From contig JBDHTU010000001.1 in assembly GCA_039808805.1 (NCBI GenBank), positions 1 through 34,520 of the forward strand: DNA of 34,520 nt, in the 5' to 3' direction. Each line of letters starts with the position of its first letter. Within the stretch, counting starts at the first letter, position 1. The DNA is from Micavibrio sp. Lineage in GTDB: Bacteria > Pseudomonadota > Alphaproteobacteria > Micavibrionales > Micavibrionaceae. A program made the position numbers and the translations under genes. The notes beneath the pieces are model-generated. The model was not told where the DNA came from, ran no database searches, and worked only from the letters and a program-made list of their open reading frames with translations. This document shows, one piece after another, positions 1,278-29,395 of this stretch.

Positions 1278-1511
1278 TTAGTGGGCGTGGTCTTCGGCCG
1301 GGTGCTCGTCGCCATGTTCTTCAGCATGTTCGCCAGCCGGGGCTTCTGCGTCCGGTGCAGCTTCTTCCGTGGCAGGAGCCGCATCTTCATCAGCAGGGGC
1401 GGCCTCCTCGGAAGCGGCCGGGGTTTCTTCAGCCTGGGCCTGGAAGGCATAGTACGCAGGGGCGGCGGCGATGAGGCCGGCAGCAGCCAGCATCAGGACG
1501 TATTTGTTCAT
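1278..1511 (-). CDS. Small secreted acidic protein with a His-rich C-terminal tail (77 aa), function unknown
   Basis: It has the signal-peptide-like N-terminus MNKYVLMLAAAGLIAAAPAYYAFQA. This is followed by E/A/P-rich low complexity ending EHAEEHGDEHPAEDHAH. It has its own terminator. The N-terminus is paralogous to the next gene. Confidence 0.6.
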   Translation of the reverse strand: MNKYVLMLAAAGLIAAAPAYYAFQAQAEETPAASEEAAPADEDAAPATEEAAPDAEAPAGEHAEEHGDEHPAEDHAH

Positions 1512-1610
1512 AAATCTCTCCGATATGAAGGGTTGGCGTTTCCATGTCCGGAAACATGTTCACTATGCCATGTTTGCAACAAAAATCAATCAGGCACCCG
1601 GAGCTTTTGC

Positions 1611-1642
1611 AAAAAAAGACCCGGCACAGGACCGGGCCTTTT
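1611..1642 (-). terminator. Probable rho-independent terminator after the 88-aa secreted-protein gene
   Basis: A short GC stem (CCCGG / CCGGG) is followed on the minus strand by a T7 run, about 20 nt after the stop at 1663. Confidence 0.55.
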
Positions 1643-1662
1643 CCGAATCCCCGGGCGATGCC

Positions 1663-1929
1663 TTAGTGGACCAGCTTGCCTTCCTTGACGGTCAGAGACG
1701 TACCGTCGCTGGCTTTGTGGTCACCATCCGGAGCGGCCGTCTTGGTGCCGTCGGCGGCGACGACAAACACGGCGTCTTCTTCAACGACAACCTTCGTGCC
1801 GTCTTCGAGCGTATATTCTTTTACGGTGACTTCTTCTGCAACCGGGGCGACAGCCTCTTCAGCCTTGACGATAGCGGGAGCGAACGCGACGAAACCGGCA
1901 GCAGCCAGCATAAGAGCATATTTGGTCAT
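1663..1929 (-). CDS. Small secreted protein with DGT(K/S) beta-hairpin-like repeats (88 aa), function unknown
   Basis: The ORF track gives 1663-1935. I prefer the ATG at 1929 because GAGGA lies 7 nt upstream. That start gives MTKYALMLAAAGFVAFAPAIVKA, parallel to the neighbour's MNKYVLMLAAAG. The mature part has three DGT-containing segments: EDGTKVVVEED, ADGTKTAAPDG and SDGTSLTVKEG. Confidence 0.6.
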   Translation of the reverse strand: MTKYALMLAAAGFVAFAPAIVKAEEAVAPVAEEVTVKEYTLEDGTKVVVEEDAVFVVAADGTKTAAPDGDHKASDGTSLTVKEGKLVH

Positions 1930-3016: not shown

Positions 3017-4639
<1,623 letters not shown>

Positions 4640-4736
4640 TCATAAAAGTAAAATAAAGTTATGCGTGCGATTGCCGCCCGGCCAAGGAGCGGCTGCGCTT
4701 AAACCTTGAGTAGGCGTTGCGAAAAGTTAACGACTG

Positions 4737-5390
4737 CTAGGCCCGGCTTTCGGCGCTGCGGCGGAAGCCCGTTGCCACGACATATGTCTCCGGCGATTCC
4801 TTGCGCGAGGCCGGCGGCTTTATGTGTTTGACGGATTTGAAATCCTTTTTCATGCGCGCCAGAAGTTCGCCTTCCGTGCCGCCCTGAAACACCTTGGCGA
4901 CGAACGATCCGTTCGGCTTTAAAATCTCGATAGCAAAATCGTATCCGGCCTCGACCAGCGCCATGATCTTGTTGTGGTCCGTGTTGCGGTGTCCCACCGT
5001 GTTGTGCGCGATGTCGGACATCACGACATCCGCCTGCTCGCCGCCCAGCGCGTTCATCAGGACATCCGGCGCGTCGTCGTCCATGAAATCCATCTGGAAA
5101 AACGTCACGCCCGGAATTTCATCCATCTCCAGAAGATCGATGGCGACGACATGCCTGCACCCCTTTTCGACCGCGACCTGGCACCAACCGCCCGGCGCCG
5201 CGCCAAGGTCGACCACCACCTGCCCTTTTTTCAGGATGTGGGCTTTTTCGTCGATCTCCTTGATCTTATAGGCCGCGCGGGACCGGTATCCTTCCTTCTT
5301 GGCCTTGGCCACGTACGGGTCTGTCAATTGACGCTCGATCCATTTGATCGAGGAAATCTTGCGGCCTTTGGCTGTCTTGATCTTTTTCAT
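4737..5390 (-). CDS. rlmE: 23S rRNA (uridine-2'-O)-methyltransferase RlmE/FtsJ
   Basis: Motifs seen are WIERQLTDPYVAKAKKEGYRSRAAYKI, VVDLGAAPGGWCQV and VMSDIAHNTVGH. The start is taken at MKKIKTAKG (5390). Confidence 0.93.
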   Translation of the reverse strand: MKKIKTAKGRKISSIKWIERQLTDPYVAKAKKEGYRSRAAYKIKEIDEKAHILKKGQVVVDLGAAPGGWCQVAVEKGCRHVVAIDLLEMDEIPGVTFFQMDFMDDDAPDVLMNALGGEQADVVMSDIAHNTVGHRNTDHNKIMALVEAGYDFAIEILKPNGSFVAKVFQGGTEGELLARMKKDFKSVKHIKPPASRKESPETYVVATGFRRSAESRA

Positions 5391-8035: not shown

Positions 8036-8635
8036 ATGATATTCCGGATCGTCGTCATCTGCCTTGCGCTCGCAGCCGCTTACGTAGGGTATGAATTATG
8101 GGCGGTCCGGAATTTCTATAAAACGCTACAGGAGCCGGACCCGGCTTTTACCGTTGTCAATGACGGGAACCAACCTTCCATCACAATCGTTGAGCTTTTG
8201 AACTATAATTGCGTCGAGTGCCGCAAGGCGCATCTCGTGCTTTTGGATTATGCCGAAAGCAACAAGGACGTGCGGCTTGTAATCCGGCCGGTTCCTTTTA
8301 CCAATTCCAAAGACCCGACAGAACGCGCGCTGGCGGCGGGGCTGCAGGGAAAGTTCCGGGAATTTGATCGCGCAATGACGGAATTCGGCGGCCAGTATAC
8401 GGAAAAATTTTATCGTGAAGCGGCGGCCCTGTACGAAGTGGATTATGACCGGATGATCAAAGACTCCGCAGGTGAAACCGTTTTTGACATGGCGTCCGAA
8501 AATGCAAAGGCTGCGACGCTTGCCAGGATTACAACCACGCCGGCCCTCATGATCGGCAAGACGCTGTATCAGCCGGAAGGAGAGTTGACACTGCCGGATT
8601 TGATCCGCATGGTGCAACAAGAAAAGGCCCGCTGA
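8036..8635 (+). CDS. Membrane-anchored DsbA-like thioredoxin-fold protein
   Basis: The N-terminal TM helix is MIFRIVVICLALAAAYVGY. The CxxC motif sits in LLNYNCVECRKA, and TTPALMIG is the cis-Pro loop. It starts 13 nt after the preceding DsbA gene. Confidence 0.8.
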   Translation: MIFRIVVICLALAAAYVGYELWAVRNFYKTLQEPDPAFTVVNDGNQPSITIVELLNYNCVECRKAHLVLLDYAESNKDVRLVIRPVPFTNSKDPTERALAAGLQGKFREFDRAMTEFGGQYTEKFYREAAALYEVDYDRMIKDSAGETVFDMASENAKAATLARITTTPALMIGKTLYQPEGELTLPDLIRMVQQEKAR

Positions 8636-8684
8636 TCGATACGGTTTTTGAAATTTTGATCAATCTCATTGAAAGGATACATCG

Positions 8685-9470
8685 ATGAAACGCTCCCTCC
8701 ACCTTCTTCCCTTGATGGCGTTCACCGCCATGACGCTTGTTCTCGCAGGCTGCGACGACAAGGCGGAAGACCAATCCGCCGATGCGACGATCACCGCCCC
8801 GGCCGCCGACGAAACGGCAACCTCCGTCATGCCAACAGCCGAAACAGCGCCGGCCACAACGGATATGGTCGAGGCCGCGGCGCCGATGATCAGCGCAGAA
8901 GGCGCCAACGCCTACGCCACGGCAGAAGGCGCGACGACAGGCGCAATCTTTTTGACGCTGCACAATCCGGGCAGCGAAGCCGACCGCCTTGTCGGCGCAT
9001 CCACAACAAAGGCCGCCACGGTTGAAATCCATGAAAACACCGTTGCCGCCGACGGCACGATGGAAATGCGCAAAGTCGATGGCGTGGATATTCCTCCGGG
9101 CCAGCAGGTCAGCCTCAGCCCCAACGGCTATCACATCATGCTGATGGGTCTTTCCGCGCCGCTGGTTCAGGGCGAAACCTTCGATGTCACGCTGGACTTT
9201 GAAAAAGCCCCGGATGTGACCGTGCCCGTAACGATCACCGCACCGGGCGGCGATGCCGTCGGCAGTGACGGCACCGCGTCGATGGATCACACCGACCATG
9301 TCCCGGCCGAAGCCAGTGATATCCCGGCAACGGACGAACCTGTAACGGAAACCACGGCACCGGCCGCAGAAACCCCGGCGTACGGCTCCACCATGCCGGG
9401 TGAGGCTGCAGAGTCTTCGCCTTCGGCCACGACCGATACGCCGACGGCCGATGTCCCCGCAGGCCAGTAA
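8685..9470 (+). CDS. PCu(A)C-type periplasmic copper chaperone lipoprotein with low-complexity T/A/P/E tails
   Basis: The lipobox is LVLAGC. The copper motif H-x11-M-x21-H-x-M is intact: IHENTVAADGTMEM then 21 aa then YHIMLMG. The C-terminal extension contains MDHTDH. Confidence 0.85.
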   Translation: MKRSLHLLPLMAFTAMTLVLAGCDDKAEDQSADATITAPAADETATSVMPTAETAPATTDMVEAAAPMISAEGANAYATAEGATTGAIFLTLHNPGSEADRLVGASTTKAATVEIHENTVAADGTMEMRKVDGVDIPPGQQVSLSPNGYHIMLMGLSAPLVQGETFDVTLDFEKAPDVTVPVTITAPGGDAVGSDGTASMDHTDHVPAEASDIPATDEPVTETTAPAAETPAYGSTMPGEAAESSPSATTDTPTADVPAGQ

Positions 9471-9903
9471 AAAAATCCTGATCCTCAACGGCCCGAACCT
9501 CAACATGCTTGGGGTTCGGGAACCGTCTATTTACGGGCGCGATACGTTGCAGGATATCCATGTGATGTGCACGGAAAAGGCGGGGACCCTGACATATTCC
9601 GTCGATTTCCGGCAAAGCAATCATGAAGGCGAACTGGTCACCTGGATCCAGGAAGAGCGGAACTCCATCTGCGGCCTGATCATCAACGCGGGCGCCTATA
9701 CCCATACCTCGCTGGCGATCCACGATGCGCTCAAGCTTCTGGACGTGCCGATTATCGAAGTCCACCTGTCCGACCCCGAAAAACGCGAAGAATTCCGCCA
9801 TTTTTCATATATATCCCTTGTGGCCGCCAAAGTCATAAAAGGCAAGGGATCAGCGGGTTACAGCGAGGCGATAGAGGCCTTGTCCACATTGGTTAAAGCC
9901 TGA
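9451..9903 (+). CDS. aroQ: Type II 3-dehydroquinate dehydratase
   Basis: Motifs seen are KKILILNGPNLNMLGVREPSIYG, FRQSNHEGELV, IINAGAYTHTS and IEVHLSDPEKREEFRH. The start is taken at MSPQASKK, which overlaps the PCuAC 3' end by 20 nt. Confidence 0.93.
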   Translation: MSPQASKKILILNGPNLNMLGVREPSIYGRDTLQDIHVMCTEKAGTLTYSVDFRQSNHEGELVTWIQEERNSICGLIINAGAYTHTSLAIHDALKLLDVPIIEVHLSDPEKREEFRHFSYISLVAAKVIKGKGSAGYSEAIEALSTLVKA

Positions 9904-9985
9904 GCGCCCGATTCCTTTGACTTTTCAGTGCTTTTTCTCTATTCAAGGACGCTTGAAAATTAACGAATAGCGGTTGTGAGCCTGC

Positions 9986-10450
9986 ATGAAAATCGACGCG
10001 AAAGCGATCCGCCAGCTGGCGGACCTCCTGAATGAAACCGGCCTGACGGAAATCGAGGTCGCCGAAGGCGATCAGATGATCCGCGTGAACAAGGGCGGTG
10101 TTTTCCTGGGCGGCGGCCATGCGCATGCCGCACCTGCCAACATCAACATGCCGTCGGACCCGACGCTGCCGCAAAAGGCGAACACGGCCCTGCCGGCCAC
10201 GGTCACAGGCGACCATCCCGGCGCCGTCACATCCCCCATGGTGGGCACGGCCTATCTGGCCCCGGAACCGGGCGCGGCGACCTTTGTGAAAAAAGGCGAC
10301 ACCGTTGCCGCCGGCGATACGCTGCTGATCATCGAAGCGATGAAGGTGATGAACCCGATCAAGGCTTCCAAGGGCGGAACCATTACGCAAATCCTCGTCG
10401 AAAGCGGTAAGCCGGTTGAGTATGGCGACGTTCTGATGGTGATCGAGTAA
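9986..10450 (+). CDS. accB: Biotin carboxyl carrier protein of acetyl-CoA carboxylase
   Basis: It has a Pro/Ala linker and the biotinyl-lysine motif LIIEAMKVMNPI. Confidence 0.95.
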   Translation: MKIDAKAIRQLADLLNETGLTEIEVAEGDQMIRVNKGGVFLGGGHAHAAPANINMPSDPTLPQKANTALPATVTGDHPGAVTSPMVGTAYLAPEPGAATFVKKGDTVAAGDTLLIIEAMKVMNPIKASKGGTITQILVESGKPVEYGDVLMVIE

Positions 10451-10481
10451 GATCAAATCCGCGAAGGAGCCGAAGGCTTTC

Positions 10482-10967
10482 ATGGTCGCATTCAACATCA
10501 TTCCCCTCGTCGAAAAGCCTGAGTTGGTAGACGCTTGCGCGGCATGGAGCTATGCGGAATGGGGATCGCAGCTTTCGACGCGCACGTTGCAGCAGGTCCA
10601 TGAAGACTACAAAGCCAGCATACAGGGCGATACGCTGCCGGTGACATGGATGGCCCTGTCGGAAGACGGAAAACCCGCCGGCATGGTCCGCCTGAAAAAG
10701 AACGACCATATCGAACGTGAAGATTTAAAACCGTGGCTCAGCTCCCTTTACGTCCATCCCCGCTATCGGGGCGAAGGCCTGTCCGAACAATTGTGCGATT
10801 GCGCCGAAGATGCCGCGCAGCATATTTACGGATACGACAAGATTTATCTTTTTACCGGCACGGCAGAAGAATTGTACGAACGCAGAGGCTATAAAAAGAT
10901 TGGAACGGTGGAAGACCTTTCCGGTTACTATAAAAATGGCAAATCTCTTATGATGAAAGAATTCTAG
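10482..10967 (+). CDS. GNAT-family N-acetyltransferase, located between accB and accC
   Basis: The GNAT core is LYVHPRYRGEGLSEQLCDCAEDAA, followed by LYERRGYKKIG. Its stop lies 3 nt before the accC ATG. Confidence 0.8.
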   Translation: MVAFNIIPLVEKPELVDACAAWSYAEWGSQLSTRTLQQVHEDYKASIQGDTLPVTWMALSEDGKPAGMVRLKKNDHIEREDLKPWLSSLYVHPRYRGEGLSEQLCDCAEDAAQHIYGYDKIYLFTGTAEELYERRGYKKIGTVEDLSGYYKNGKSLMMKEF

Positions 10968-10970
10968 AGA

Positions 10971-12311
10971 ATGTTTAAAAAAATCCTCATCGCCAACCGC
11001 GGCGAAATCGCGCTGCGCATTATCCGCGCCTGCCGCGAAATGGGCATTCAATCCGTCGCCGTGCATTCCACGGCGGACGCAAATTCCATGGCCGTGCGCC
11101 TCGCCGATGAATCCGTCTGCATCGGGCCGCCTGCCGGGAAAGACAGCTATTTGAACATTCCCGCCATTCTCACGGCAGCGGCCGTCACAGGCGCGGAGGC
11201 AATCCACCCGGGATACGGCTTTCTTTCCGAAAACGAAATGTTCGCCCGCATGGTCGAAGAACACGGCTTCACCTTTATCGGGCCGAAGCCGGAGCATATT
11301 GAAAAAATGGGCGACAAGGTCGTCGCCAAGAAAACCGTCATGGATCTCGGCCTGCCCGTGGTCCCCGGCTCTGACGGTGCGGTAACCTCCGTCGAAGACG
11401 GTCTTGCCTTCTGCCGCAAGGCGGGATTCCCGGTGATCATCAAGGCTGCCTCCGGCGGCGGCGGGCGCGGCATGAAAGTCGTGCGCAGCGAAGACCAGTT
11501 TCAGGAACAATATTCCACTGCGCGGTCCGAGGCGAAAGCCAACTTCGGCGACGATACCGTCTACATCGAAAAATACCTGGAAAAGCCGCGCCACATCGAA
11601 ATCCAGGTATTCGGCGACAAGCACGGCAACGGCATCCATCTTGGGGAACGCGATTGTTCCATCCAGCGCCGCCACCAGAAGCTGGTGGAGGAAGCCCCTT
11701 CCCCGATCCTGACGCAGGAAGAGCGAGAGGCGATCGGTTCCCTCGCTGCGGACGTGATCCGCAAAATGGGGTATATCGGTGCGGGCACCATCGAATTCCT
11801 CTATGAAGACGGCAAGTTCTACTTCATGGAAATGAACACGCGGATTCAGGTGGAACACCCGGTGACCGAACAGATCACCGGCATTGACCTGATTGCCGAA
11901 CAGATCCGTGTCGCGGCCGGTCTGCCCCTTTCGCTGAACAAGGAAAACATCCGCTTCCGCGGTCATGCCATTGAAATCCGCATCAATGCCGAAGACCCGG
12001 ATACGTTCGCCCCTTCGCCCGGAAAAATCACCCAGTTCCACGCGCCGGGAGGCCTTGGCGTGCGGTTCGATTCCGCCATCTATGGCGGCTATTCCATCCC
12101 GCCTTACTACGATTCGATGATCGGCAAGCTGATCGTCACCGGCAAGACGCGGGATGAATGCATCGCCCGCATGCGCCGCGCCATTTCCGAAACCGTGGTG
12201 GAAGGCGTGAAGACGACCCTGCCGCTGCACCAGTGGATTTTCAACCAGCCCGAATTCGTTTCCGGCGAATACAACATCCACTGGCTGGAAAAGAAACTCG
12301 CGGAAAGATAG
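10971..12311 (+). CDS. accC: Acetyl-CoA carboxylase biotin carboxylase subunit
   Basis: It starts [26 protein letters not shown] and carries the ATP-grasp loop [14 protein letters not shown]. Further motifs are [14 protein letters not shown] and [10 protein letters not shown]. Confidence 0.98.
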
Positions 12312-12317
12312 GTCGCC

Positions 12318-12737
12318 ATGGGACAGCTGTTTTCTGTGCAGCCGCACTGGGAAACGCTGACGCCGTTCAACGTCCTTGCCGTGTACGCGCAGCCCGCGGT
12401 TGAAGCGCCCCGGCGCAGCCGTTTCGGCGCCATTCATTCCCATCACGTCTGGTGCCTGCGCCGGGACAATATCCTCCTCAAACAGGCGTTTGCCGACGCG
12501 CAAAGCGCCAATGCCGCGGCCTTTACCCTCGCCGCCGGCCTGCCTTCCCTGAAACCAGTCTCGCGCCAGCCTTTTGTCGCGGTGAGAACGGAAGACGTCG
12601 TAAAAGCTTTCAGCGATCAAAACAGGACCGTGATCGGTTTTCAGGGCGAGCGCGCTTTTTACGTGCAATACGCCCATGACTATGAAGCCAAGGCCTTGGC
12701 CGCGCGCGTTAAAAACAATCTGCGTTTGGGCGGATAG
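12318..12737 (+). CDS. Hypothetical protein (139 aa) between accC and aat
   Basis: It starts 6 nt after the accC stop. Its codons are GC3-rich like the neighbouring genes. I recognise no motif. Confidence 0.5.
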   Translation: MGQLFSVQPHWETLTPFNVLAVYAQPAVEAPRRSRFGAIHSHHVWCLRRDNILLKQAFADAQSANAAAFTLAAGLPSLKPVSRQPFVAVRTEDVVKAFSDQNRTVIGFQGERAFYVQYAHDYEAKALAARVKNNLRLGG

Positions 12738-20015: not shown

Positions 20016-22322
20016 TTACTGCACGGTTTCTTTCGCTGCAGGCACGGCCTTCCGGGGTTTTCCGGCCTTGTCGATATCGAAGGCGATTTTGTCGTCCTTC
20101 ACCTTGATATGCGCGGTGCCGCCCTCGGCCAGTTCGCCGAACAGGATTTCCTCGGCCAGCGGTTTTTTGACGTTTTCCTGGATCACGCGGGCGAGAGGCC
20201 GCGCGCCCATCGCGGGGTCGTACCCTTTGTGCGCCAGCCATTGCCGCGCCTCTTCCGAAAGCTGCAAGCCGACATTCTTTTCCGTGAGTTGGGCTTCCAG
20301 TTGCGCGATGAATTTGTCCACGACCCGCACCATCGTTTCCTGCGCCAGCGCCTTGAACGGGACAATGGCGTCGAGGCGGTTCCGGAACTCCGGCGTGAAC
20401 ATCTTGTTGATGGCTTCCTTGTCTTCGTCCACCCGCACAGACCGTTCGAACCCGATCGGCGCGCGGGCCAGTTCGGCGGCGCCCGCGTTGGTCGTCATGA
20501 TCAGGATGACATTGCGGAAATCGACCGTCTTGCCGTTGTTGTCGGTCAGCTTGCCGTAATCCATGACCTGCAGCAAAATATTGTAGATGTCCGGATGCGC
20601 TTTCTCGATCTCGTCGAGCAGGAGCACGCAATGCGGCTGCTGGTCGATCCGGTCGGTCAGAAGCCCGCCCTGATCGAAGCCGACATAGCCGGGCGGGGAG
20701 CCGATAAGACGTGAAATCGAATGCCGTTCCATGTATTCGGACATGTCGAACCGCGCGAGTTCGACGCCCATCGTTTTCGACAACTGCTTGGCGACCTCGG
20801 TCTTGCCGACGCCCGTGGGGCCGGAGAAAAGAAAGCATCCGATCGGCTTGTCCGCATCGCGCAATCCGGCGCGGGACAACTTGATCGCATCGACCAGCGT
20901 GTTGATCGCCTCGTCCTGGTCGAACACCAGCGTCTTGAGGTCGCGCTCAAGATTCTTGAGCACCGCCTTGTCGTCCTTGGACAGCGATTTCGCCGGGATG
21001 CGGGCGATGGCGGCGACCACGCCCTCGATATCGGCCGTGTCGATCACTTTTTTGCGCTTGTCCGCGGGAACCAGCATCTGCGCCGCGCCGACCTCGTCGA
21101 TGATATCGATCGCCTTGTCCGGCAGCTTGCGGTCGGCCATGTATTTGGCGGACAGTTCGACGGCGGCCTTGATGGCGTCGTCGGTGTAGGTCACGCCGTG
21201 ATGCTCCTCGTAATAGGATTTGAGGCCTTTCAGGATATCGATCGTCTCGTCGATCGTCGGCTCATAGACATCGATCTTCTGGAACCGGCGCACCAGCGCG
21301 CGGTCCTTCTCGAAATGATTGCGGTATTCCTTGTAGGTGGTGGAACCGATGCATTTCAGCGTGCCGTTGGAAAGCGACGGCTTCAAAAGATTCGATGCGT
21401 CCATCGCCCCGCCGCTGGTCGCGCCCGCGCCGATAACGGTGTGGATCTCGTCAATAAACAGCACCGCACCGTCCACCTTTTCCAGTTCGGCCAGAACCTG
21501 TTTGATACGTTCTTCGAAATCGCCGCGGTAGCGTGTCCCGGCCAGCAGCGCGCCCATATCCAGGGAATAAATGACGGCGTCTTTCAAAACGTCCGGCACG
21601 TCGCCTTCGACGATTTTCTTGGCAAGCCCTTCGGCGATGGCGGTCTTGCCGACGCCGGGGTCGCCGACATACAGCGGGTTGTTTTTGCTGCGGCGGCAGA
21701 GGATCTGGATCGTGCGATCCACTTCCTTCTGGCGGCCGATCAACGGGTCGATCTTTCCGGTCCGCGCCTTGTCGTTCAGGTTTTTGCAATAGGTCTTGAG
21801 CGCCTCGCCCGCACCCTTCGCGCCGGGGGCGGCGCTGTCCGCCTCCTCGTCCGCGCCGCGCGGGGCCTTGGTGTTGTCGTTGTGGCCCGGCACTTTGGCG
21901 ATGCCGTGGCTGATGTAATTGACGGCGTCGAACCGCGTCATGTCCTGTTCCTGCAGGAAATAAACCGCATGAGATTCGCGCTCTGAAAACAGCGCGACCA
22001 GCACATTCGCGCCGGTCACTTCCTCGCGGCCCGAAGACTGGACGTGGATCGCCGCCCGCTGCAGCACGCGCTGGAACGCCGTGGTGGGCTTGGCTTCTTC
22101 GCCTTCCGGCGCGGTGAGATAGCCGAGTTCATGGTCCAGATACTGCTCCAGCTGCTCGCGCAGGTCGCCCATTGAAATCCCGCAGGACCGCAGCACGGCC
22201 ATCGCGTCCTGATCCTCGATCAGGGCCAGCAGCAAATGCTCCAGCGTCGCATATTCGTGGTTGCGCTGGTTGGCGGCGGCCAGCGCGCGGTGCAGGGTCT
22301 GTTCGAGATTGCGTGAGAGCAT
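20016..22322 (-). CDS. clpA: ATP-dependent Clp protease ATP-binding subunit ClpA
   Basis: The N-domain begins [34 protein letters not shown]. The two Walker A motifs are GDPGVGKT and GPTGVGKT. Further motifs are [11 protein letters not shown] and [11 protein letters not shown]. Confidence 0.98.
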
Positions 22323-22323
22323 A

Positions 22324-22551
22324 TTATATACCGAGCCTCCAACATTCTTGCCGTATTTCGGCTTCTAACGCTCGCCGGGAAATCTCATTGCTTTTTTTCC
22401 TTTCCTCCAGCATCAACCGTTGAATATCGGGCATTACATCACGGACGGACATTACATCACGGATGAAATTGTCCGGGTATTCAACTGCCGCTCCGGTAGC
22501 CTGATCCATAGCTGTTTTTAGATAGAGCAGTTTTTTAAATTCATCACTCAT
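22324..22551 (-). CDS. Hypothetical 75-aa helical protein wedged between clpS and clpA
   Basis: The ATG lies 3 nt after the clpS stop, with GAAGGAA upstream. Its TAA lies 1 nt before the clpA ATG. It contains an in-frame 18-nt tandem duplication (RDVMSV/RDVMPD). By eye it is visibly more A/T-rich than its neighbours. Confidence 0.55.
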   Translation of the reverse strand: MSDEFKKLLYLKTAMDQATGAAVEYPDNFIRDVMSVRDVMPDIQRLMLEERKKSNEISRRALEAEIRQECWRLGI

Positions 22552-22554
22552 GAT

Positions 22555-22983
22555 CTATTCCTTCTCCATCGTGCATTGCAGCGGCTGTTCGTTGGCGCGG
22601 GCGAAATCCATGACCTGCGCGACCTTGGTTTCCGCGACCTCATAGGTGAAAATGCCACAGACGCCGACGCCGCGGCGATGGACATGCAGCATGATATCGG
22701 TCGATTCCTGCCGGTTCTTGTTGAAAAACCGCTCCAGGATATGCACAACGAATTCCATCGGCGTGTAATCGTCGTTCAGCAGCAAAACCTTGTACATGGA
22801 CGGCTTCTTGGTCTTGGGCCGCGGCTTGAGCAATACGCCCGTCTGGCGCTCGCGCTCCTGGTCGTTGCCGCCGTTCTCGCCGCCCGGCGGCGGCAGGGCG
22901 AGCGGTTCGCCGTCGTCCATGCGGGGGCGAAAGTCAGCGGAAATCGGGGCTGGCGCCTGGGTCATACTGCTTAAAAAATCCAT
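22555..22983 (-). CDS. clpS: ATP-dependent Clp protease adaptor ClpS
   Basis: The core is [25 protein letters not shown] ... [24 protein letters not shown]. The length of the N-terminal extension is uncertain; an alternative start is MTQAP at 22965. Confidence 0.93.
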
Positions 22984-23071
22984 GGGTCATTTTATCAAAA
23001 AGGGCCTGAGTGGAAAAGAATATAGTACCGCGGCGCGCCGATTGAAAGCCGCCACAGCCCGTCCGGCCAAC

Positions 23072-23837: not shown

Positions 23838-25535
23838 ATGAAATTAGGGTCTTTTCAATCATCTTCTTCTAAGATGTTAACAAATATAAAACTGGCTTCG
23901 GACAGACCCGCATCAACGGTCCGCAAGTCCCCGGGAGAACAGGTTTTGCAGCGCATCGTTTCAGCCATGCTGATCTTTTGCATCGCCCTTGCTTTTCCTT
24001 ATGAAAGCTCGGCCGCGACCAAAAAGAAAAGTTCGGGAGGAAATCCCAAATACGCCTCCATCGTCATCGATGCCGCGTCGGGAACGGTTTTGTCCGAAAG
24101 CAATGCGGACAAATCCCTGCATCCCGCCTCGCTGACCAAGGTCATGACGCTGCTGATGCTGTTCGAAGCGCTGGAAAACGGCAATGTCCGCCTGAACGAC
24201 AAGATCTTCATATCCAAGCATGCCGCGGCCCAGCAGCCGAGCAAGCTCGGCATTGCCGCCGGCGGCTCGATCCGCGTGGAGGACGCCATCCTTGCGGTGG
24301 TGACCAAATCGGCCAATGACATTGCGACCGCCATCGGCGAACATCTTGCCGGGTCCGAAGGACGCTTCGCCCTTCGCATGACGCGCCGCGCCCATGATAT
24401 CGGCATGTCCCGCACCACGTTCCGCAACGCCTCCGGCCTTCACGATCCCGGCCAGGTGACCAGCGCCCGCGACATGGCGATCCTCGCCCGCTATATCCTG
24501 TTCCGCTATCCGAACTACTACCGTTATTTCGGCACGAAACAGTTCACCTACCGCGGCAAGACGATGACCAACCACAACCGCCTGATGAACTCCTATCCCG
24601 GCATGGACGGCTTCAAGACGGGGTTCATCAACGCGTCGGGCTTCAACCTGATCGCGTCCGCAAAGCAGGACGGCCGCCGCCTGATCGGCGTGGTCTTCGG
24701 CGGGCGCAGCTGGAAGACCCGGAATGACCATATGGCCGTGCTGCTGAACACCGGTTTTTCCAAGGCCCGCGATATCCGCTATGCGCAGGAACGCTCCGGC
24801 AACGGCGCAGGCGTCGCGGTAGCAGCCGCCCCGGTCCAGCCGCCGATGCCGCTCCCGACACCGAAACCGGTTCTCAAACCCACGGCCAATACGCTCCAGC
24901 TTCCTGAGCAGCGTGTTATTGCGGCGGCCCCAACCCCGCCGCCCGGGAATTTCACGTCTCTGTCCTCGCTGGAAACAGGGCGCAAGCTGGTGCTGGATAC
25001 GGCCCTGCCGCCGCCGCAAAACCAGGTGACCGCACAGGCCGTCGCCAATGCCCAGCGCGCGATCGACAGCGGGGAATACAGCGAACTGACCGGCGAAGGG
25101 GATTACGATCCCGGCACGGCCCGCCGCGTCGAAACCGGGCTGATCGCCGCCGCGGTCTATAAAGGGGAACATGACCGTGTCGAACAGATTCAACAGGCCG
25201 CCCGCCCGCCTGCCGCACCTGCGGCAACCGCGCCCGGCGGACAAGCGCAGCATATCCTGACCGTGCCCGCCGCCGCGGTCCAGCCGCAACCCGCCCCGTC
25301 GGACCTGTGGTCGGTGCAGATCGGCGCCTACAACAGCCGCGTCGCCACGGACGATGCGCTGCGCCAGGCGATCGGCCGCCTCCCGCCCGCATTGGCCCAT
25401 GCCAGCCCGCAGGTCGTCCCGCTGAACACCGCAGAAGGAACGCTCTTCCGCGCCCGCCTCGGCAACTTCACGCAGGAACAGGCTTCCGCCGCCTGCCGTT
25501 ATTTCCGCGACTGCCTGCCTGTTTCGCCGCGCTAG
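23838..25535 (+). CDS. Serine-type D-Ala-D-Ala carboxypeptidase (PBP5/6, S11 family) with Pro-rich linker and C-terminal SPOR domain
   Basis: The active-site motifs are SxxK in PASLTKVMT, SxN in KSANDIA and KTG in FKTGFI. The C-terminal WSVQIGAYNSRVATDDAL ... FRARLGNF matches a SPOR fold. The exact start is uncertain (23838 or 23874). Confidence 0.9.
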   Translation: MKLGSFQSSSSKMLTNIKLASDRPASTVRKSPGEQVLQRIVSAMLIFCIALAFPYESSAATKKKSSGGNPKYASIVIDAASGTVLSESNADKSLHPASLTKVMTLLMLFEALENGNVRLNDKIFISKHAAAQQPSKLGIAAGGSIRVEDAILAVVTKSANDIATAIGEHLAGSEGRFALRMTRRAHDIGMSRTTFRNASGLHDPGQVTSARDMAILARYILFRYPNYYRYFGTKQFTYRGKTMTNHNRLMNSYPGMDGFKTGFINASGFNLIASAKQDGRRLIGVVFGGRSWKTRNDHMAVLLNTGFSKARDIRYAQERSGNGAGVAVAAAPVQPPMPLPTPKPVLKPTANTLQLPEQRVIAAAPTPPPGNFTSLSSLETGRKLVLDTALPPPQNQVTAQAVANAQRAIDSGEYSELTGEGDYDPGTARRVETGLIAAAVYKGEHDRVEQIQQAARPPAAPAATAPGGQAQHILTVPAAAVQPQPAPSDLWSVQIGAYNSRVATDDALRQAIGRLPPALAHASPQVVPLNTAEGTLFRARLGNFTQEQASAACRYFRDCLPVSPR

Positions 25536-26248: not shown

Positions 26249-26788
26249 TTATTTGTTGATCAAAGGCTCCATGGCGGGCAGTGAATTGGCGCTGCGGGTC
26301 ATGTATTTGCTGATGTCATAGGTGACGGGGAGCGCGTAGCTGTTGCTGGAAAGAAGCTGCGCCCGCTGTCCGCGCTCATGCAGGTAGAGCTTGACCTGCA
26401 TCGTCCCGTCCTTGATTTCATAGGTGCCGGACACTTCGTTGTACCCGCCGCCCGCATGCATCGTGTCGACAACGTTGTAGCCGAGCTGTGAAAACCGCTC
26501 GCGGATCTGGCCGCCGATAACCTGTCCCACTTTCGGGCTGGTGGTCACGGTTTTCTGGCGCGTGTCCGGAATTTCCTGAAGGTCTGAAACGAGCAGCGGC
26601 GTTTGCGGCAGCAGACGCTTGCCGGCGCGCTGGGCGAGGATTTCAGCCGCCGCGTAGGACGAATTGGTCAGGTTGACCCGCTTTTGCGCGATGATGCCGG
26701 GTGTGGCGACGCCCATCATCACGACCTCGCACCCGCCAAGCGCCACGGCGGCGCTCAGGGCAAGGACGCAAAGCGACGGGCGCAGCAT
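26249..26788 (-). CDS. Lipoprotein, possibly with a FlgO/LpoB-like fold
   Basis: The lipobox is VALGGC. A pattern follows of helix AAEILAQRAG, strand PLLVSDLQ, and then IGGQIRERFSQLGYNVVD. Confidence 0.65.
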   Translation of the reverse strand: MLRPSLCVLALSAAVALGGCEVVMMGVATPGIIAQKRVNLTNSSYAAAEILAQRAGKRLLPQTPLLVSDLQEIPDTRQKTVTTSPKVGQVIGGQIRERFSQLGYNVVDTMHAGGGYNEVSGTYEIKDGTMQVKLYLHERGQRAQLLSSNSYALPVTYDISKYMTRSANSLPAMEPLINK

Positions 26789-26794
26789 GAGCCT

Positions 26795-27418
26795 TTATTC
26801 CTGAAAGTTTCCGCCGGGGCCGGTCGGTTCCGGGATGAACGTGCCGGGGAAGGAGGCGAAGCGGACGTTGAGTTTTTCCGCGCCCTGAATGTAGAAGTCG
26901 CCGCTTTCCTGCGTGAGCATCCGGCTGTCTTCGCCGACCTTGTCATGCACGTGCAGCGTGATGCGCACGTTCGGGGACGTGTCGCCCGGCTGTACGGGTT
27001 CGGCTTTCAGCATCTCGGCATTGTAGGTGAACGCATAGGCATCGTCGGGCGTGTCCGCAAGGCGGTAGCCGACATGGCGCAGCGATTCGCGCAGGTCGTT
27101 GTCGAGGTTGGCATAGAACGGCGTCATCGGCTCGGGCTTGACCACATAGACCGGCTTCGGCGGCAGACCGGCGCGGGTCGTCAGCGTATCGACAAGCTGG
27201 TAGACCGACATGCGGAACTGTTCGGCCTGTTCAGGCCCCATGGTGGAGCGCTGCAATTCCGTGAATTTCGGCGATTCCGGCGGGTTCGGGGATTTGTACG
27301 GATCGTCGTGGTAGGCGTAGCCCTTCGGGATGGCGTTCGGGCTGCAGGCGGCGAGGCCCAGCGCGGCAACGCAGGAAGACAGGACAAGGGCGGAGAGTTT
27401 GGATTTCTTGTGAAGCAT
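26795..27418 (-). CDS. Lipoprotein, hypothetical
   Basis: The start is taken at MLHKKSKLSALVLSSCVAALGLAAC, which carries the lipobox LAAC. It shares the ...LRESLRHVGYRLAD element with the downstream lipoprotein. The gap to the next gene is 6 nt. Confidence 0.65.
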   Translation of the reverse strand: MLHKKSKLSALVLSSCVAALGLAACSPNAIPKGYAYHDDPYKSPNPPESPKFTELQRSTMGPEQAEQFRMSVYQLVDTLTTRAGLPPKPVYVVKPEPMTPFYANLDNDLRESLRHVGYRLADTPDDAYAFTYNAEMLKAEPVQPGDTSPNVRITLHVHDKVGEDSRMLTQESGDFYIQGAEKLNVRFASFPGTFIPEPTGPGGNFQE

Positions 27419-27533
27419 GGGGGACGATCCGTGAATAAGGATGTTGCAAATCAAAGACCCGGCCAGTCTACCAAGGATCGGATTGCCCGTATAGAGTCTT
27501 TGGGAAACAATCCCTTAGGCTTTTTGGCCGCCG

Positions 27534-27755
27534 TTACGCCGCTGTGCCCTGAACCCGCGCCTCCCCGGCCGGGGACAGGCGGCAGAAAAACCGGGCGTCG
27601 CCTTTTGCGCACGGCGCGCAAAGACGCTCGATCCACCCCTGCCCCAGCGCCTCGTTCACGGCCTCGCTGCCGTAACGGCGGAACAGATCGTCTTCATATT
27701 GAACGGCCTGGGTCGGTTCGAAATACACGGATAGCAGATAGAGATCGTGCAGCAT
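27534..27755 (-). CDS. Small hypothetical protein (73 aa) with CxxC
   Basis: This uses an internal ATG at 27755 with GGAGGG about 5 nt upstream. The sequence is MLHDLYLLSVYFEPTQ ... GWIERLCAPCAKGDARFFCRLSPAGE. The C-terminus looks like a winged-helix wing, but that is weak. Confidence 0.4.
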   Translation of the reverse strand: MLHDLYLLSVYFEPTQAVQYEDDLFRRYGSEAVNEALGQGWIERLCAPCAKGDARFFCRLSPAGEARVQGTAA

Positions 27756-27913
27756 GGCACCCTCCGATAAGGATTGGCGGTTGAAGAGAACGAACGGCGG
27801 AATCGCCGCTTTGATACTAAGAATTATTCGCAAAACAAGGGCGGGTGTCAAGCGCCTAAAAGTTAAAACCACAAGATATTGTGGATGAATGCGTTTTTAT
27901 AACACCAGATATA

Positions 27914-29395
27914 TTACCCGGTCTTGCGGGATTTATCGATGATCGCGGTCGTGCTGAACCCGTCCTGCATCGGCATGATCCGCACTCTGCCGCCATAAGA
28001 CTGCACGATCTTCGCTTCCGGCAGCTGGTCGATCGTGTAATCGCCGCCCTTGAAAAACAGGTCGGGCTTCAGGCTTTCGATCGCCACGCACGGCGTGTTG
28101 TCCTCCCCCGCCTTTTCGGCACCGAACAAAACCACCATATCGACGCTGCCGAGCGCGCCGATCACGGCGGCCCGCGCCTGTTCATCATTCACCGGACGCG
28201 AAGGGCCTTTGAGCAGCCGCACGGAAACATCCGTATTGATCGCGACGATCAGCCTGTCCACCTGCGCACGCGCCTGGGACAGGTATGTAACATGCCCCTT
28301 GTGCAGGATGTCGAAACACCCGTTGGTGAATCCCACCGTGGCCCCAGCATCTTTCCACGCTTTCACTTGCGCGCCCGCATCGTTCAGGCTGAGCAGCGGC
28401 GCAATCCCCGCGCCGATATCGCTGCGGCCAAGCGCAGCGTCCATATCCGCCGCCGTCACCGGCGCGGTGCCGATTTTCGAAACCGCAATGCCCCCCGCGA
28501 TATTCGCAAGCCGCGCCGAATCGTCCAGCGATGCGCCCGCCGCGAGCGCCGCCGCGAGGACGGAGATAACCGTATCGCCCGCACCGGACACGTCGAACAC
28601 ATCGCGCGCCTGCGCGGAAACATGAAGCGGTTTTGCCGTGACGGTAATGACGCTCAACCCGTCTTCGGACCGCGTGGCGATGACGGATTTGATCCCGCAC
28701 TCTTTCATGATCTTCTGCGCGGCGGCCGTGACGTCCGCATCGCTTTTCACGCTGCCCGCGCCCGCGGCCTCCGCGAGTTCCTTGCGGTTCGGCGTGACGA
28801 TATCCGCGCCGTGATAGATGGAATAATCCCGCCCTTTGGGATCGACCAGCACGGGAATGCCCTGCGCCTGTGCTGTTTTAATGATGCCCTGGATCAGGGA
28901 TTTTCCGAGCGTGCCCTTCCCGTAGTCGGACAGCACGATCGCCTTTGCCCCTTTTGCGGCTTTCTGCACGGTATCAAGCAGCGATTTTTCAATCACCGCA
29001 TCCGCCGCGTGCGTCTTTTCGAAATCCGCGCGCATCATCTGCTGGCTGCGCGCGAGGTAGCGGATCTTCTGCGTCGTCGGGCGCGAAGCATCGACGATCA
29101 GGCCGTGCGCGTCGTCGCCGTGCGATTTTGCGAGAGCGCGCACCGTATCCGCCGCGTCGTCCGCGCCGATCAACGTGAACAGGGACGGCTTCGCGCCGAG
29201 CGCGCAAAGATTGGCCAGCACATTGCCCGCGCCGCCGAGCATCAATTTCTCTTCCCGGATTGTCAAAACGGGCACCGGGCCTTCGGGCGAAATACGGTCG
29301 ACATCGCCCGCGACGAATTTGTCGAGCATCACATCGCCCACGACAAGAATTTTAAGACCCTGCGCCTTTTTTAGAATATTTTTAAATCCGTCCAT
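27914..29395 (-). CDS. hldE: Bifunctional D-beta-D-heptose 7-phosphate kinase / D-beta-D-heptose 1-phosphate adenylyltransferase
   Basis: The N-terminal ribokinase-like part carries ILVVGDVMLDKFVAGDVDRISPEGPVPV and DVSGAGDTV. The C-terminal cytidylyltransferase part carries GFTNGCFDILHKGHV. Confidence 0.95.
   Translation of the reverse strand: MDGFKNILKKAQGLKILVVGDVMLDKFVAGDVDRISPEGPVPVLTIREEKLMLGGAGNVLANLCALGAKPSLFTLIGADDAADTVRALAKSHGDDAHGLIVDASRPTTQKIRYLARSQQMMRADFEKTHAADAVIEKSLLDTVQKAAKGAKAIVLSDYGKGTLGKSLIQGIIKTAQAQGIPVLVDPKGRDYSIYHGADIVTPNRKELAEAAGAGSVKSDADVTAAAQKIMKECGIKSVIATRSEDGLSVITVTAKPLHVSAQARDVFDVSGAGDTVISVLAAALAAGASLDDSARLANIAGGIAVSKIGTAPVTAADMDAALGRSDIGAGIAPLLSLNDAGAQVKAWKDAGATVGFTNGCFDILHKGHVTYLSQARAQVDRLIVAINTDVSVRLLKGPSRPVNDEQARAAVIGALGSVDMVVLFGAEKAGEDNTPCVAIESLKPDLFFKGGDYTIDQLPEAKIVQSYGGRVRIMPMQDGFSTTAIIDKSRKTG

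Follow-up and report, generated by a model that had tools for sequence, protein, structure and literature searches.

A polymorphic small open reading frame with discrete allelic types at the clpS-clpA junction of uncultured Micavibrio-related Alphaproteobacteria

Introduction

The genes clpS and clpA are among the most conserved two-gene units in Proteobacteria. In a 34,520-nucleotide (nt) stretch of DNA from Micavibrio sp. (positions 1 to 34,520 of contig JBDHTU010000001.1, assembly GCA_039808805.1; the whole stretch is called the window below), an open reading frame (ORF) of 75 amino acids (aa) lies between clpS and clpA, and we refer to it as the slot ORF. Our favoured reading, to which we give a probability of about 0.5 as a combined statement, is that the slot ORF is one allele, designated type A, of a lineage-restricted and fast-evolving small-protein gene at the clpS-clpA junction, and that its product is an accessory factor or a client of the Clp machinery. 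That the family is a gene and that its alleles are exchanged are, taken together, very probable; a Clp-related function, to which the operon position points, is proposed tentatively.

Two features give the locus its interest. The family is a protein-coding gene, selected in at least one allelic type, that appears to be translationally interlocked with clpS and clpA, and it occurs as discrete, recombining types beside essentially invariant ClpS and ClpA proteins. In this paper we describe the relatives of the slot ORF, the selection acting on its product and the exchange of its alleles, and we weigh the favoured reading against other explanations of the insert.

Relatives and allelic types of the slot ORF

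Direct searches with the 75-aa translation returned almost nothing. A word-indexed search of 5.8 billion proteins and an exhaustive phmmer search of 1.84 billion representatives gave just one twin (P0002, 96% identical) and a spurious tandem-repeat protein (P0003), which was rejected as a homologue because its expectation value (E) was inflated by seven weak repeat matches. P0002 is encoded on the short contigs L001 and L002, in the same clpS-ORF-clpA layout as in the window.

The other relatives were reached through ClpS. At 90% identity, the ClpS protein of the window clusters with six others, whose contigs (L163-L173) have the neighbourhood seen in the window, that is, peptidase S11, phasin, clpS, slot and clpA, with DUF2157 next after clpA where the contig extends that far (L163). 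The slot is filled by an ORF in every contig of the cluster, but its sequence differs from that of the window. A profile search with the three types that emerged added two type C proteins, P0013 and P0014, which lie between clpS and clpA on contigs L174 and L175. The slot ORF is thus not an orphan, a reading that was rejected once relatives found by ClpS synteny placed it as one allele of a polymorphic locus. Small polymorphic genes of this kind are invisible to standard homology searches: against 5.8 and 1.8 billion proteins the ORF looked like an orphan, and synteny alone found its relatives.

Occupied slots were found on 16 related contigs from 14 samples and fall into three types. Type A, in the window and its twin, has 75 aa; type B has 67 aa and the N-terminus MSNEFKKLIG... 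(8 contigs); type C has 66-67 aa, the N-terminus M(M)ADIELEAIFVKETGTWE... and a start that overlaps the clpS stop. Of the related contigs, 14 span the ORF and all of these keep its frame intact; three more contigs hold its start. Throughout the subclade the ORFs have 66-75 codons, begin 0-3 nt past the clpS stop or overlap it, and end 1-7 nt before the clpA ATG. Packing of starts and stops is very tight in all types, at times as an overlapping TAATG or ATGA. In every type the ORF closes with AGG, GAGG or GGAGG and a stop codon 1-7 nt from the clpA ATG, and in types B and C an AAGG, GAGG or GGGG lies 6-10 nt before that ATG. A first-pass annotation of the window, made from the sequence alone, had described the ORF as a gene-like insert in an otherwise contiguous operon, and the conservation of frame, size and tight packing among relatives bears this out.

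Similarity between the types is patchy. In hhalign comparisons, types A and B share residues 1-22 at 55% identity (E = 7.7e-6), types B and C align weakly over 32 C-terminal residues (E = 0.021), and types A and C align over the last 10 residues only (E = 0.078). Alignment of the DNA gives the same mosaic, with A and B alike in the N-terminal third and B and C weakly alike in the C-terminal half. A C-terminal stretch of the form Q-[QE]-x-[WL]-x-[LI] is loosely shared among types, and the codons adjoining clpA are the part in which the types are most similar. The frame relation of the ORF to clpS and to clpA differs from type to type, and on this ground we rejected the idea that programmed read-through or frameshifting fuses its product to ClpS or ClpA.

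Selection on the encoded protein

Evidence for selection on the protein comes from type C. Between L169 and L175 there are 30.2 synonymous differences at 41.3 sites and 27.8 non-synonymous differences at 156.7 sites, which gives a ratio of non-synonymous to synonymous divergence (dN/dS) of 0.07 (Fisher p = 4e-11); between L174 and L175 the corresponding values are 28.0/41.0 and 38.0/157.0, with a dN/dS of 0.16 (Fisher p = 4e-7). Conservation of amino acids in type C spans the whole protein. These comparisons show the pattern of strong purifying selection in type C that is expected of a functional protein product and, because dN/dS is 0.07-0.16, we take the slot family to encode a protein.

The first-pass annotation had named a spacer shared by close relatives without a conserved reading frame as the outcome that would speak against a gene. 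What was found favours a gene, since the frame is kept and type C has the low dN/dS just given. The test for purifying selection that it had proposed detected such selection in type C and gave no signal in type A, so that a kept frame and position together with dN/dS well below 1 characterise the family and not type A by itself.

Exchange of alleles between hosts

Allelic type does not follow the relatedness of the hosts. The ClpS proteins of the window (type A) and of L169 (type C) are 99% identical and differ at one residue, and the two ORFs are 23% identical. Synonymous divergence (dS) in the flanking genes of this pair ranges from 0.06 (phasin) to 0.25 (clpS). Mismatches per 100 nt number 0-3 over most of the shared 2.4 kb. 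Towards the ORF, in the final 250 nt of clpS, the count climbs to 8, then 11, then 26, and within the ORF itself it is 47. This gradient is taken to be the footprint of a recombination import, or else of an old balanced polymorphism.

Within types, the relation is turned round. L169 and L174, which both carry type C, have a dS of 0.26 in the ORF versus 1.35 in clpS. The window and L001 differ by 3 substitutions in the ORF (1.3%) and by 37 in the adjoining 839 nt of clpA, of which 28 are at third positions (dS 0.155), and divergence between these type A alleles is four to ten times lower than at the synonymous sites of their flanks. Because type is discordant with host relatedness and divergence climbs steeply in the flanks near the ORF, the comparisons indicate that alleles have been exchanged, probably by homologous recombination through the conserved clpS and clpA. 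Types A and C were met in sequencing runs that have adjacent Sequence Read Archive accessions (SRR10090769 vs SRR10090784-786) and presumably belong to one study. Their hosts have nearly identical ClpS, and this co-occurrence has the look of a balanced polymorphism.

A second local hypervariable patch against the otherwise near-identical L169 lies at about 24810-24910 of the window (plus strand; L169:101-200), within a peptidase S11/SPOR-type gene at 23838-25535. It has 33 mismatches and 6 gaps in about 100 nt and falls in the Pro-rich linker of a D-Ala-D-Ala carboxypeptidase-like protein.

Layout, signals and composition of the junction

By the ORF list and the sequence, clpS, the slot ORF and clpA are co-oriented on the minus strand of the window (Table 1). 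The product of clpA is, by Pfam, a ClpA-type double AAA+ protein with a Clp_N domain. As the first-pass annotation had described, the ORF fills the gap, with 3 nt between the clpS stop (TAG) and its ATG and 1 nt between its TAA and the clpA ATG, and a GAAGGAA lies inside the 3' end of clpS. A GGAGG that had been offered as a signal for clpA is indeed present in the 3' end of the ORF, at a long spacing from the ATG that is taken up in the Discussion. The in-frame duplication encoding RDVMSV-RDVMPD was likewise confirmed, after a shift of register by 4 nt from the original 22432-22463. It lies in a low-confidence stretch at the start of the second helix predicted by AlphaFold2, is present in both type A alleles and not in types B and C, and contributes 6 of the 8 residues by which type A is longer. 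A consensus scan of the ORF found nothing resembling a promoter or a terminator, in agreement with a single clpS-ORF-clpA transcript.

Table 1. Coordinates of features at and around the clpS-clpA junction of the window
Feature	Position	Strand	Description	Basis
clpS	22555..22983	-	142 aa; ClpS core plus lineage-specific N-terminal extension of ~45 aa	ORF list; Pfam PF02617 1.2e-35, residues 59-138
Slot ORF, type A allele of the clpS-clpA slot gene	22324..22551	-	75 aa; coordinates include the stop codon	
clpA	20016..22322	-	768 aa	ORF list; Pfam Clp_N, AAA, AAA_lid_9, AAA_2, ClpB_D2-small
GAAGGAA, Shine-Dalgarno-like	22558..22564	-	In the final clpS codons, 6 nt 5' of the ORF ATG	Sequence
GGAGG	22336..22340	-	Within the last ORF codons, 13 nt before the clpA ATG	Sequence
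In-frame 18-nt tandem duplication	22428..22463	-	2.0 copies, 17/18 identical (94%), encodes RDVMSV-RDVMPD	Tandem Repeats Finder, repeat search, alignments
Imperfect 13-nt inverted repeat around the duplication	Arms 22419-22431 and 22473-22485	.	85% complementary; significance doubtful	Repeat search
Sigma-70-like promoter candidate (TTTCCA, 16 nt, TG-TAAAAT)	22989..23016	-	5' of clpS	Consensus scan only

The ORF was said to be richer in A/T than the flanking genes, and the measured G+C content (GC) agrees: it is 0.45 in the ORF and 0.47 in 200-nt windows over it, against 0.62-0.67 in the flanks and 0.58 in the whole window. Scored with the codon table of the host, the ORF falls below all 75-codon windows of host genes. 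GC at the first, second and third codon positions (GC1, GC2, GC3) is 0.56/0.35/0.44, the coding-type order GC1 > GC3 > GC2, and a 47%-GC codon model trained on relatives scores the ORF frame best of six and above 97% of non-coding frames. When the 225 nt were shuffled, 11% of the shuffles held a stop-free frame in any of the six. Low GC is shared by the family, GC3 being 0.42-0.52 in all three types and 0.63-0.81 in host clpS; it is therefore a property of the family and not evidence of a recent copy.

Two further classes of element were considered for the insert. A structured RNA or riboswitch leader was rejected, because Rfam gave no match at the gathering threshold and chance ones only (E > 1), and because the whole insert folds no better than its shuffles (z = -0.67). 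For the clpA-proximal part of five alleles covering all types, z-scores were -0.2 to -1.3, with no predicted stem-loop that hides the clpA ribosome-binding site. A miniature transposable or palindromic element was looked for through terminal inverted repeats, of which there are none, and through a second copy, which was found neither in the 34.5-kb window, on the one contig of this genome that was available, nor at any locus examined; a transposable element was rejected for the window, where the lone inverted repeat is the internal imperfect 13-nt pair of Table 1.

A 26-nt direct repeat of 77% identity flanks the insert, one copy at 22280-22305 in the 5' end of clpA (EQTLHRAL) and the other at 22566-22591 in the 3' end of clpS (EQPLQCTM), 286 nt apart. 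The two conserved motifs may be alike by chance, or the repeat may be microhomology that bears on rearrangements at the junction. Elsewhere in the window, the longest ORFs at 8547-12677 and 26603-29374 have GC1 of 0.65-0.77 and GC3 of about 0.6, against a GC3 of 0.72-0.82 in confident genes, and they are probably wrong-strand or wrong-frame shadows of real genes.

Family membership and predicted structure

Curated libraries did not recognise the slot ORF. The best Pfam match of type A is irrelevant (E = 0.25), types B and C have no ClpS match, and the profile of the ClpS adaptor family (PF02617) is not matched by the slot ORF, which is thus outside that family. NCBIfam gave 0 matches; a sequence search of the PDB had a best E of 0.95 with the ORF and 0 matches with the type C profile; PHROGs held nothing below E = 0.3; tblastn had a best E of 4 against phages and no match against plasmids; four scans of viral contigs gave no match; and one of JGI metagenomes gave nothing beyond the 96%-identical twin. 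PADLOC, used to look for anti-phage defence and toxin-antitoxin components, assigned 0 families, and the slot holds this ORF alone between clpS and clpA, without a partner gene. By the sequence-based tests applied, the slot ORF is a member of no named family. It appears, from these comparisons, to represent a previously undescribed small-protein family that is in none of the curated libraries searched. It is not categorically new, in that a new mechanism is not demonstrated. The literature searches made here yielded no report of a gene between clpS and clpA, nor of a ClpS/ClpA anti-adaptor of this kind.

The product had been expected to be helical, and AlphaFold2 models it in this way, with helices at residues 3-19 and 27-73. 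The model, run with five family sequences, consists of a short helix at the N-terminus and a long one at the C-terminus, joined by a low-confidence linker; the last 35 residues of the long helix have a predicted local distance difference test score (pLDDT) of 85-94. The predicted template modelling score (pTM) is 0.37, so no compact fold is predicted, and the model suggests that the C-terminal helix may need a partner or self-association. Foldseek found 0 matches to the model in the PDB.

The clpS-clpA slot in sister lineages and other Alphaproteobacteria

That clpS and clpA are normally adjacent, as the first-pass annotation had assumed, holds among 152 alphaproteobacterial loci recovered via ClpS, in which the spacer has a median of 12.5 nt; it is no longer than 30 nt in 92 of these loci and exceeds 200 nt in 16. 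The closest unoccupied slots are those of L176-L181 (ClpS 80-90% identical) and of the Micavibrio metagenome-assembled genome (MAG) L003, all with an empty spacer of 6 nt; another Micavibrio MAG, L007, has a 23-nt spacer without an ORF. In these empty-slot relatives, purine-rich clpS codons (GAGAAGGAA in L003 and GAAAAGGAG in L176-L181) lie 9 nt upstream of the clpA ATG. Because the sister lineages have a 6-nt spacer, the ORF is derived and not ancestral, and the comparison shows it, as judged from the loci at hand, to be a feature of one subclade of uncultured Micavibrio-related Alphaproteobacteria. The suggestion of a later acquisition therefore stands as regards derivation and foreign composition; its use of low GC as a sign of a recent event does not, GC3 being low in all types. 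An insertion onto the clpA start codon, with the ORF reusing the old clpA ATG, was considered and set aside: type B has a 3' junction (TAGAAAT-ATG) similar to the ancestral spacer (TAGAAT-ATG in L176), which leaves the insertion point ambiguous.

Other inserts were seen in the same slot. GCA_041443025.1 (ClpS P0016, 86% identical) has a slot ORF of 79 aa, which overlaps the clpS stop by 4 nt and leaves a 57-nt gap before clpA; the family profile search did not recover it, and a fourth allelic type and one more unrelated insert are both conceivable. In the closest GTDB reference, L004 (JANQIB010000113.1, ClpS core 92% identical), an unrelated ORF of 114 aa occupies the slot at 4300-4644. This ORF is an N-terminally truncated ORF6N domain, matching positions 49-86 only of PF10543 (E = 2.9e-9). 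Homology between it and the slot ORF was rejected, there being no BLASTP alignment at E <= 100 and no match of the slot ORF to PF10543.

More distant spacers are filled in other ways. The 283-nt spacer of L153 (3322-3604, Ga0255057_10002820) has long, nearly perfect inverted repeats at its two ends (ATACCAATGATCCTTAGTAATGACCCATAGAGA... and the complement of this sequence) and looks like a miniature transposable element inserted in the slot. L013 (4433-5674, CAVOOS010000034.1) has an ORF of 413 aa between clpS and clpA, with two ClpA N-domain-like repeats fused to a ClpS-like domain, and it appears to have arisen by duplication of the junction genes plus fusion. On the opposite strand, L082 carries two antisense DUF1127 genes in the spacer (1169-1354 and 1435-1677, minus strand; Pfam), L072 an antisense ORF that is probably DUF1127 by resemblance and has no Pfam match (4447-4647, minus strand), and L006 an antisense ORF of 222 aa, also with no Pfam match (4362-5030, minus strand). 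The spacer-filling ORFs of the GC-rich loci L104, L022, L023, L018 and L153 were dismissed as chance, with flat GC1/GC2/GC3 and low-complexity translations rich in Arg, Gly and Pro. In L104, L022, L023 and others, the conserved clpS end GAA-TGA creates an out-of-frame ATG (gaATGa), from which accidental ORFs of 49-75 codons without codon periodicity arise. This accidental ATG in GC-rich genomes is a trap for gene callers.

Discussion

We propose that the slot ORF is translated from the Shine-Dalgarno motif embedded in the 3' end of clpS, at the position where, in empty slots, a purine-rich Shine-Dalgarno-like run lies a short way 5' of clpA. Translation of clpA would be coupled to that of the ORF through the close stop-start pair and the AGG, GAGG or GGAGG in the last ORF codons. 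With coupling of this sequential kind, the small protein would be made whenever ClpS and ClpA are made. Its operon position suggests that it may act as an accessory factor, or be a co-regulated client, of the ClpS-ClpA machine, in which the long, semi-conserved C-terminal helix, predicted with confidence, would be a constant docking or oligomerisation module and the interchangeable N-terminal part a variable, specificity-determining one. The first-pass annotation had suggested that the product could modulate ClpS or ClpA, for example as an anti-adaptor; such a role, too, would follow from association in the operon.

Several findings weigh against this reading. The ClpS core (95 aa) is identical in the window and in the five type B and type C hosts compared (L174, type C, differs at 4/95), and ClpA is 98-99% identical between the window and type B hosts, while the ORF is hypervariable; an invariant ClpS core and a near-invariant ClpA beside such an ORF argue against a large co-evolving interface. 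The searches of Pfam, NCBIfam and the PDB, Foldseek included, linked the ORF to no known adaptor, anti-adaptor or inhibitor of a protease. The similarity of types B and C, and of A and C, could come partly from nucleotide constraints of the clpA translation-initiation region and not from descent. In type A, the 13 nt between GGAGG and the clpA ATG are a long and poor spacing. Type A shows no sign of protein-level constraint, since the 3 changes between its two alleles are all non-synonymous, and within type B dN/dS is 0.4-0.7 on only 5-7 substitutions. All of the contigs, finally, come from uncultured organisms.

The within-type sets of changes in A and B are too small to decide the matter, and a near-neutral pattern is often met in very recent comparisons. 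The 3 non-synonymous and 0 synonymous changes of type A, together with an ORF less diverged than the synonymous sites of its flanks, were the basis of our first idea, a very recent and possibly non-functional foreign insertion whose frame is kept for coupling; this idea was revised after the type B and type C alleles were found.

First among the competing explanations, and somewhat unlikely in our estimate, is a passenger gene unrelated to Clp, that is, a small horizontally exchanged cargo (e.g. strain-specific defence, anti-defence, immunity or addiction) in a permissive site that is strongly and constitutively expressed. Such a gene would be hard to lose, in that its 3' end now supplies the ribosome-binding site of clpA. 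The AT-richness and atypical codon usage of all types, the discrete alleles that move between lineages, and the presence of types A and C in runs with adjacent accessions and hosts with nearly identical ClpS would all be expected of cargo, as would the unrelated foreign DNA that fills the same slot elsewhere (L004, L153, L082, probably L072, and L006) and the lack of co-variation of ClpS and ClpA with the ORF. Less easily accommodated are the absence of any match in PADLOC, PHROGs, phage and plasmid collections or viral contigs, and the absence from the slot of a partner gene (e.g. a toxin) or a mobility gene; moreover, the family was found in the clpS-clpA slot only and never elsewhere.

Alternatively, the ORF may be a cis-acting translated spacer or leader, in which the passage of ribosomes maintains the coupling of clpA to clpS, averts polarity or sets the ratio of ClpS to ClpA. 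The peptide itself would be largely irrelevant, or a nascent regulator acting through its C-terminal residues. Extremely tight packing of start and stop in every type agrees with a leader, and so do the similarity of the codons next to clpA and the near-neutral dN/dS within types A and B. The ORF also takes over the purine-rich run of the clpS 3' end, which lies 9 nt 5' of the clpA ATG in empty slots, and gives clpA a new motif in return, and even the truncated ORF6N fragment of L004 is packed alike. We regard a leader as unlikely, however: type C is conserved over its full length, and not at its C-terminus alone, with dN/dS of 0.07-0.16, no stem-loop is predicted over the clpA ribosome-binding site in any type (z -0.2 to -1.3), and the frame relation to clpS and clpA is not kept. 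Nor is the insert needed for coupling, since a 6-nt spacer suffices in relatives.

A more specific form of the Clp-related reading, which we hold to be quite unlikely, makes the slot ORF a strain-specific specificity factor of the N-degron machine. The C-terminal helix would dock on ClpS or on the ClpA N-domain, and swapped N-terminal modules would recruit, shield or mimic substrates. The types would be held by balancing or frequency-dependent selection, for instance in an arms race in which ClpAPS is targeted or exploited by phages, prey or competitors, and would be shuffled by recombination through clpS and clpA. If this is true, no adaptor or anti-adaptor of a bacterial AAA+ protease before the slot protein would have been polymorphic and cassette-like.

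Absence of any function, the ORF being decaying foreign or non-coding DNA with an accidental frame, or else a structured or regulatory RNA, is very unlikely: chance frames in 11% of shuffles of the 225 nt, accidental spacer ORFs without codon periodicity in the GC-rich relatives L104, L022, L023 and L018, and the 3 to 0 excess of non-synonymous changes in type A would allow it, but for the family as a whole it is contradicted by the frame kept in 14 spanning contigs of three types (with three more partial), by purifying selection in type C, by the order GC1 > GC3 > GC2 and best-of-six frame score, and by the lack of an Rfam match or excess RNA folding.

The significance of the favoured reading depends on its functional part. 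Should the product of the slot gene not act on ClpAPS, the locus would be a clean example of a small foreign gene that embeds itself in an essential-type operon, taking one ribosome-binding site and donating another. The ClpS core and the N-terminal region of ClpA are highly conserved across the alphaproteobacterial relatives compared, and if such conservation extends to model organisms, heterologous testing would be possible.

Comparison with known systems

Arrest peptides and upstream ORFs that monitor a downstream machine are represented by SecM-secA, MifM-yidC2 and VemP-secDF2. Like these, the slot ORF lies directly upstream of, and appears translationally linked to, the gene of a protein-handling machine, and its C-terminal end is the part most conserved between types. 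It differs from SecM, MifM and VemP in that no conserved arrest motif was identified, no stem-loop that hides a ribosome-binding site is predicted, and type C is constrained over its full length.

The ORF6N fragment of L004 is the closest likeness in position. It lies on the same strand and is packed just as closely: 5 nt separate it from the clpS stop and 3 nt from the clpA ATG, and its final codons contain GGAGGAA. Its GC of 0.44 is slightly under that of its locus (0.48). It is recognisable as a fragment of a mobile-element or phage DNA-binding domain, whereas the ORF of the window matches no family.

At the pherotype loci comC and agrD, and in the horizontal switching of intergenic regions, polymorphic alleles lie between conserved flanks and are exchanged by homologous recombination. 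The slot ORF resembles these loci in its low divergence within types and very high divergence between them, in the discordance of type with host, and in a peak of divergence that decays into the flanks. Unlike comC and agrD, it is a single cytoplasmic-looking ORF of ~70 aa in a protease operon. It lacks a processing gene and a signal peptide, and no cognate receptor or partner gene varies with it.

Accessory factors of AAA+ protease adaptors offer the nearest functional model. The anti-adaptors IraD, IraM and IraP act on RssB-ClpXP, and McsA/McsB are encoded upstream of clpC. ClpF is a partner of plastid ClpS1 (reviewed in PMC7966870). The slot ORF has no sequence or fold similarity to any of these proteins (Pfam, NCBIfam, PDB). 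Hypervariability beside invariant partners has, to our knowledge, not been reported for IraD/IraM/IraP, ClpF or McsA/McsB. The likeness is one of size and setting: those small proteins modulate an adaptor or an unfoldase, and mcsA and mcsB share an operon with the unfoldase gene clpC, just as the slot ORF, so far known from its sequence, would be co-transcribed and apparently co-translated with ClpS and ClpA. If it acts on ClpAPS, the slot protein would add to the control of N-degron proteolysis a layer that is new and diversifies rapidly.

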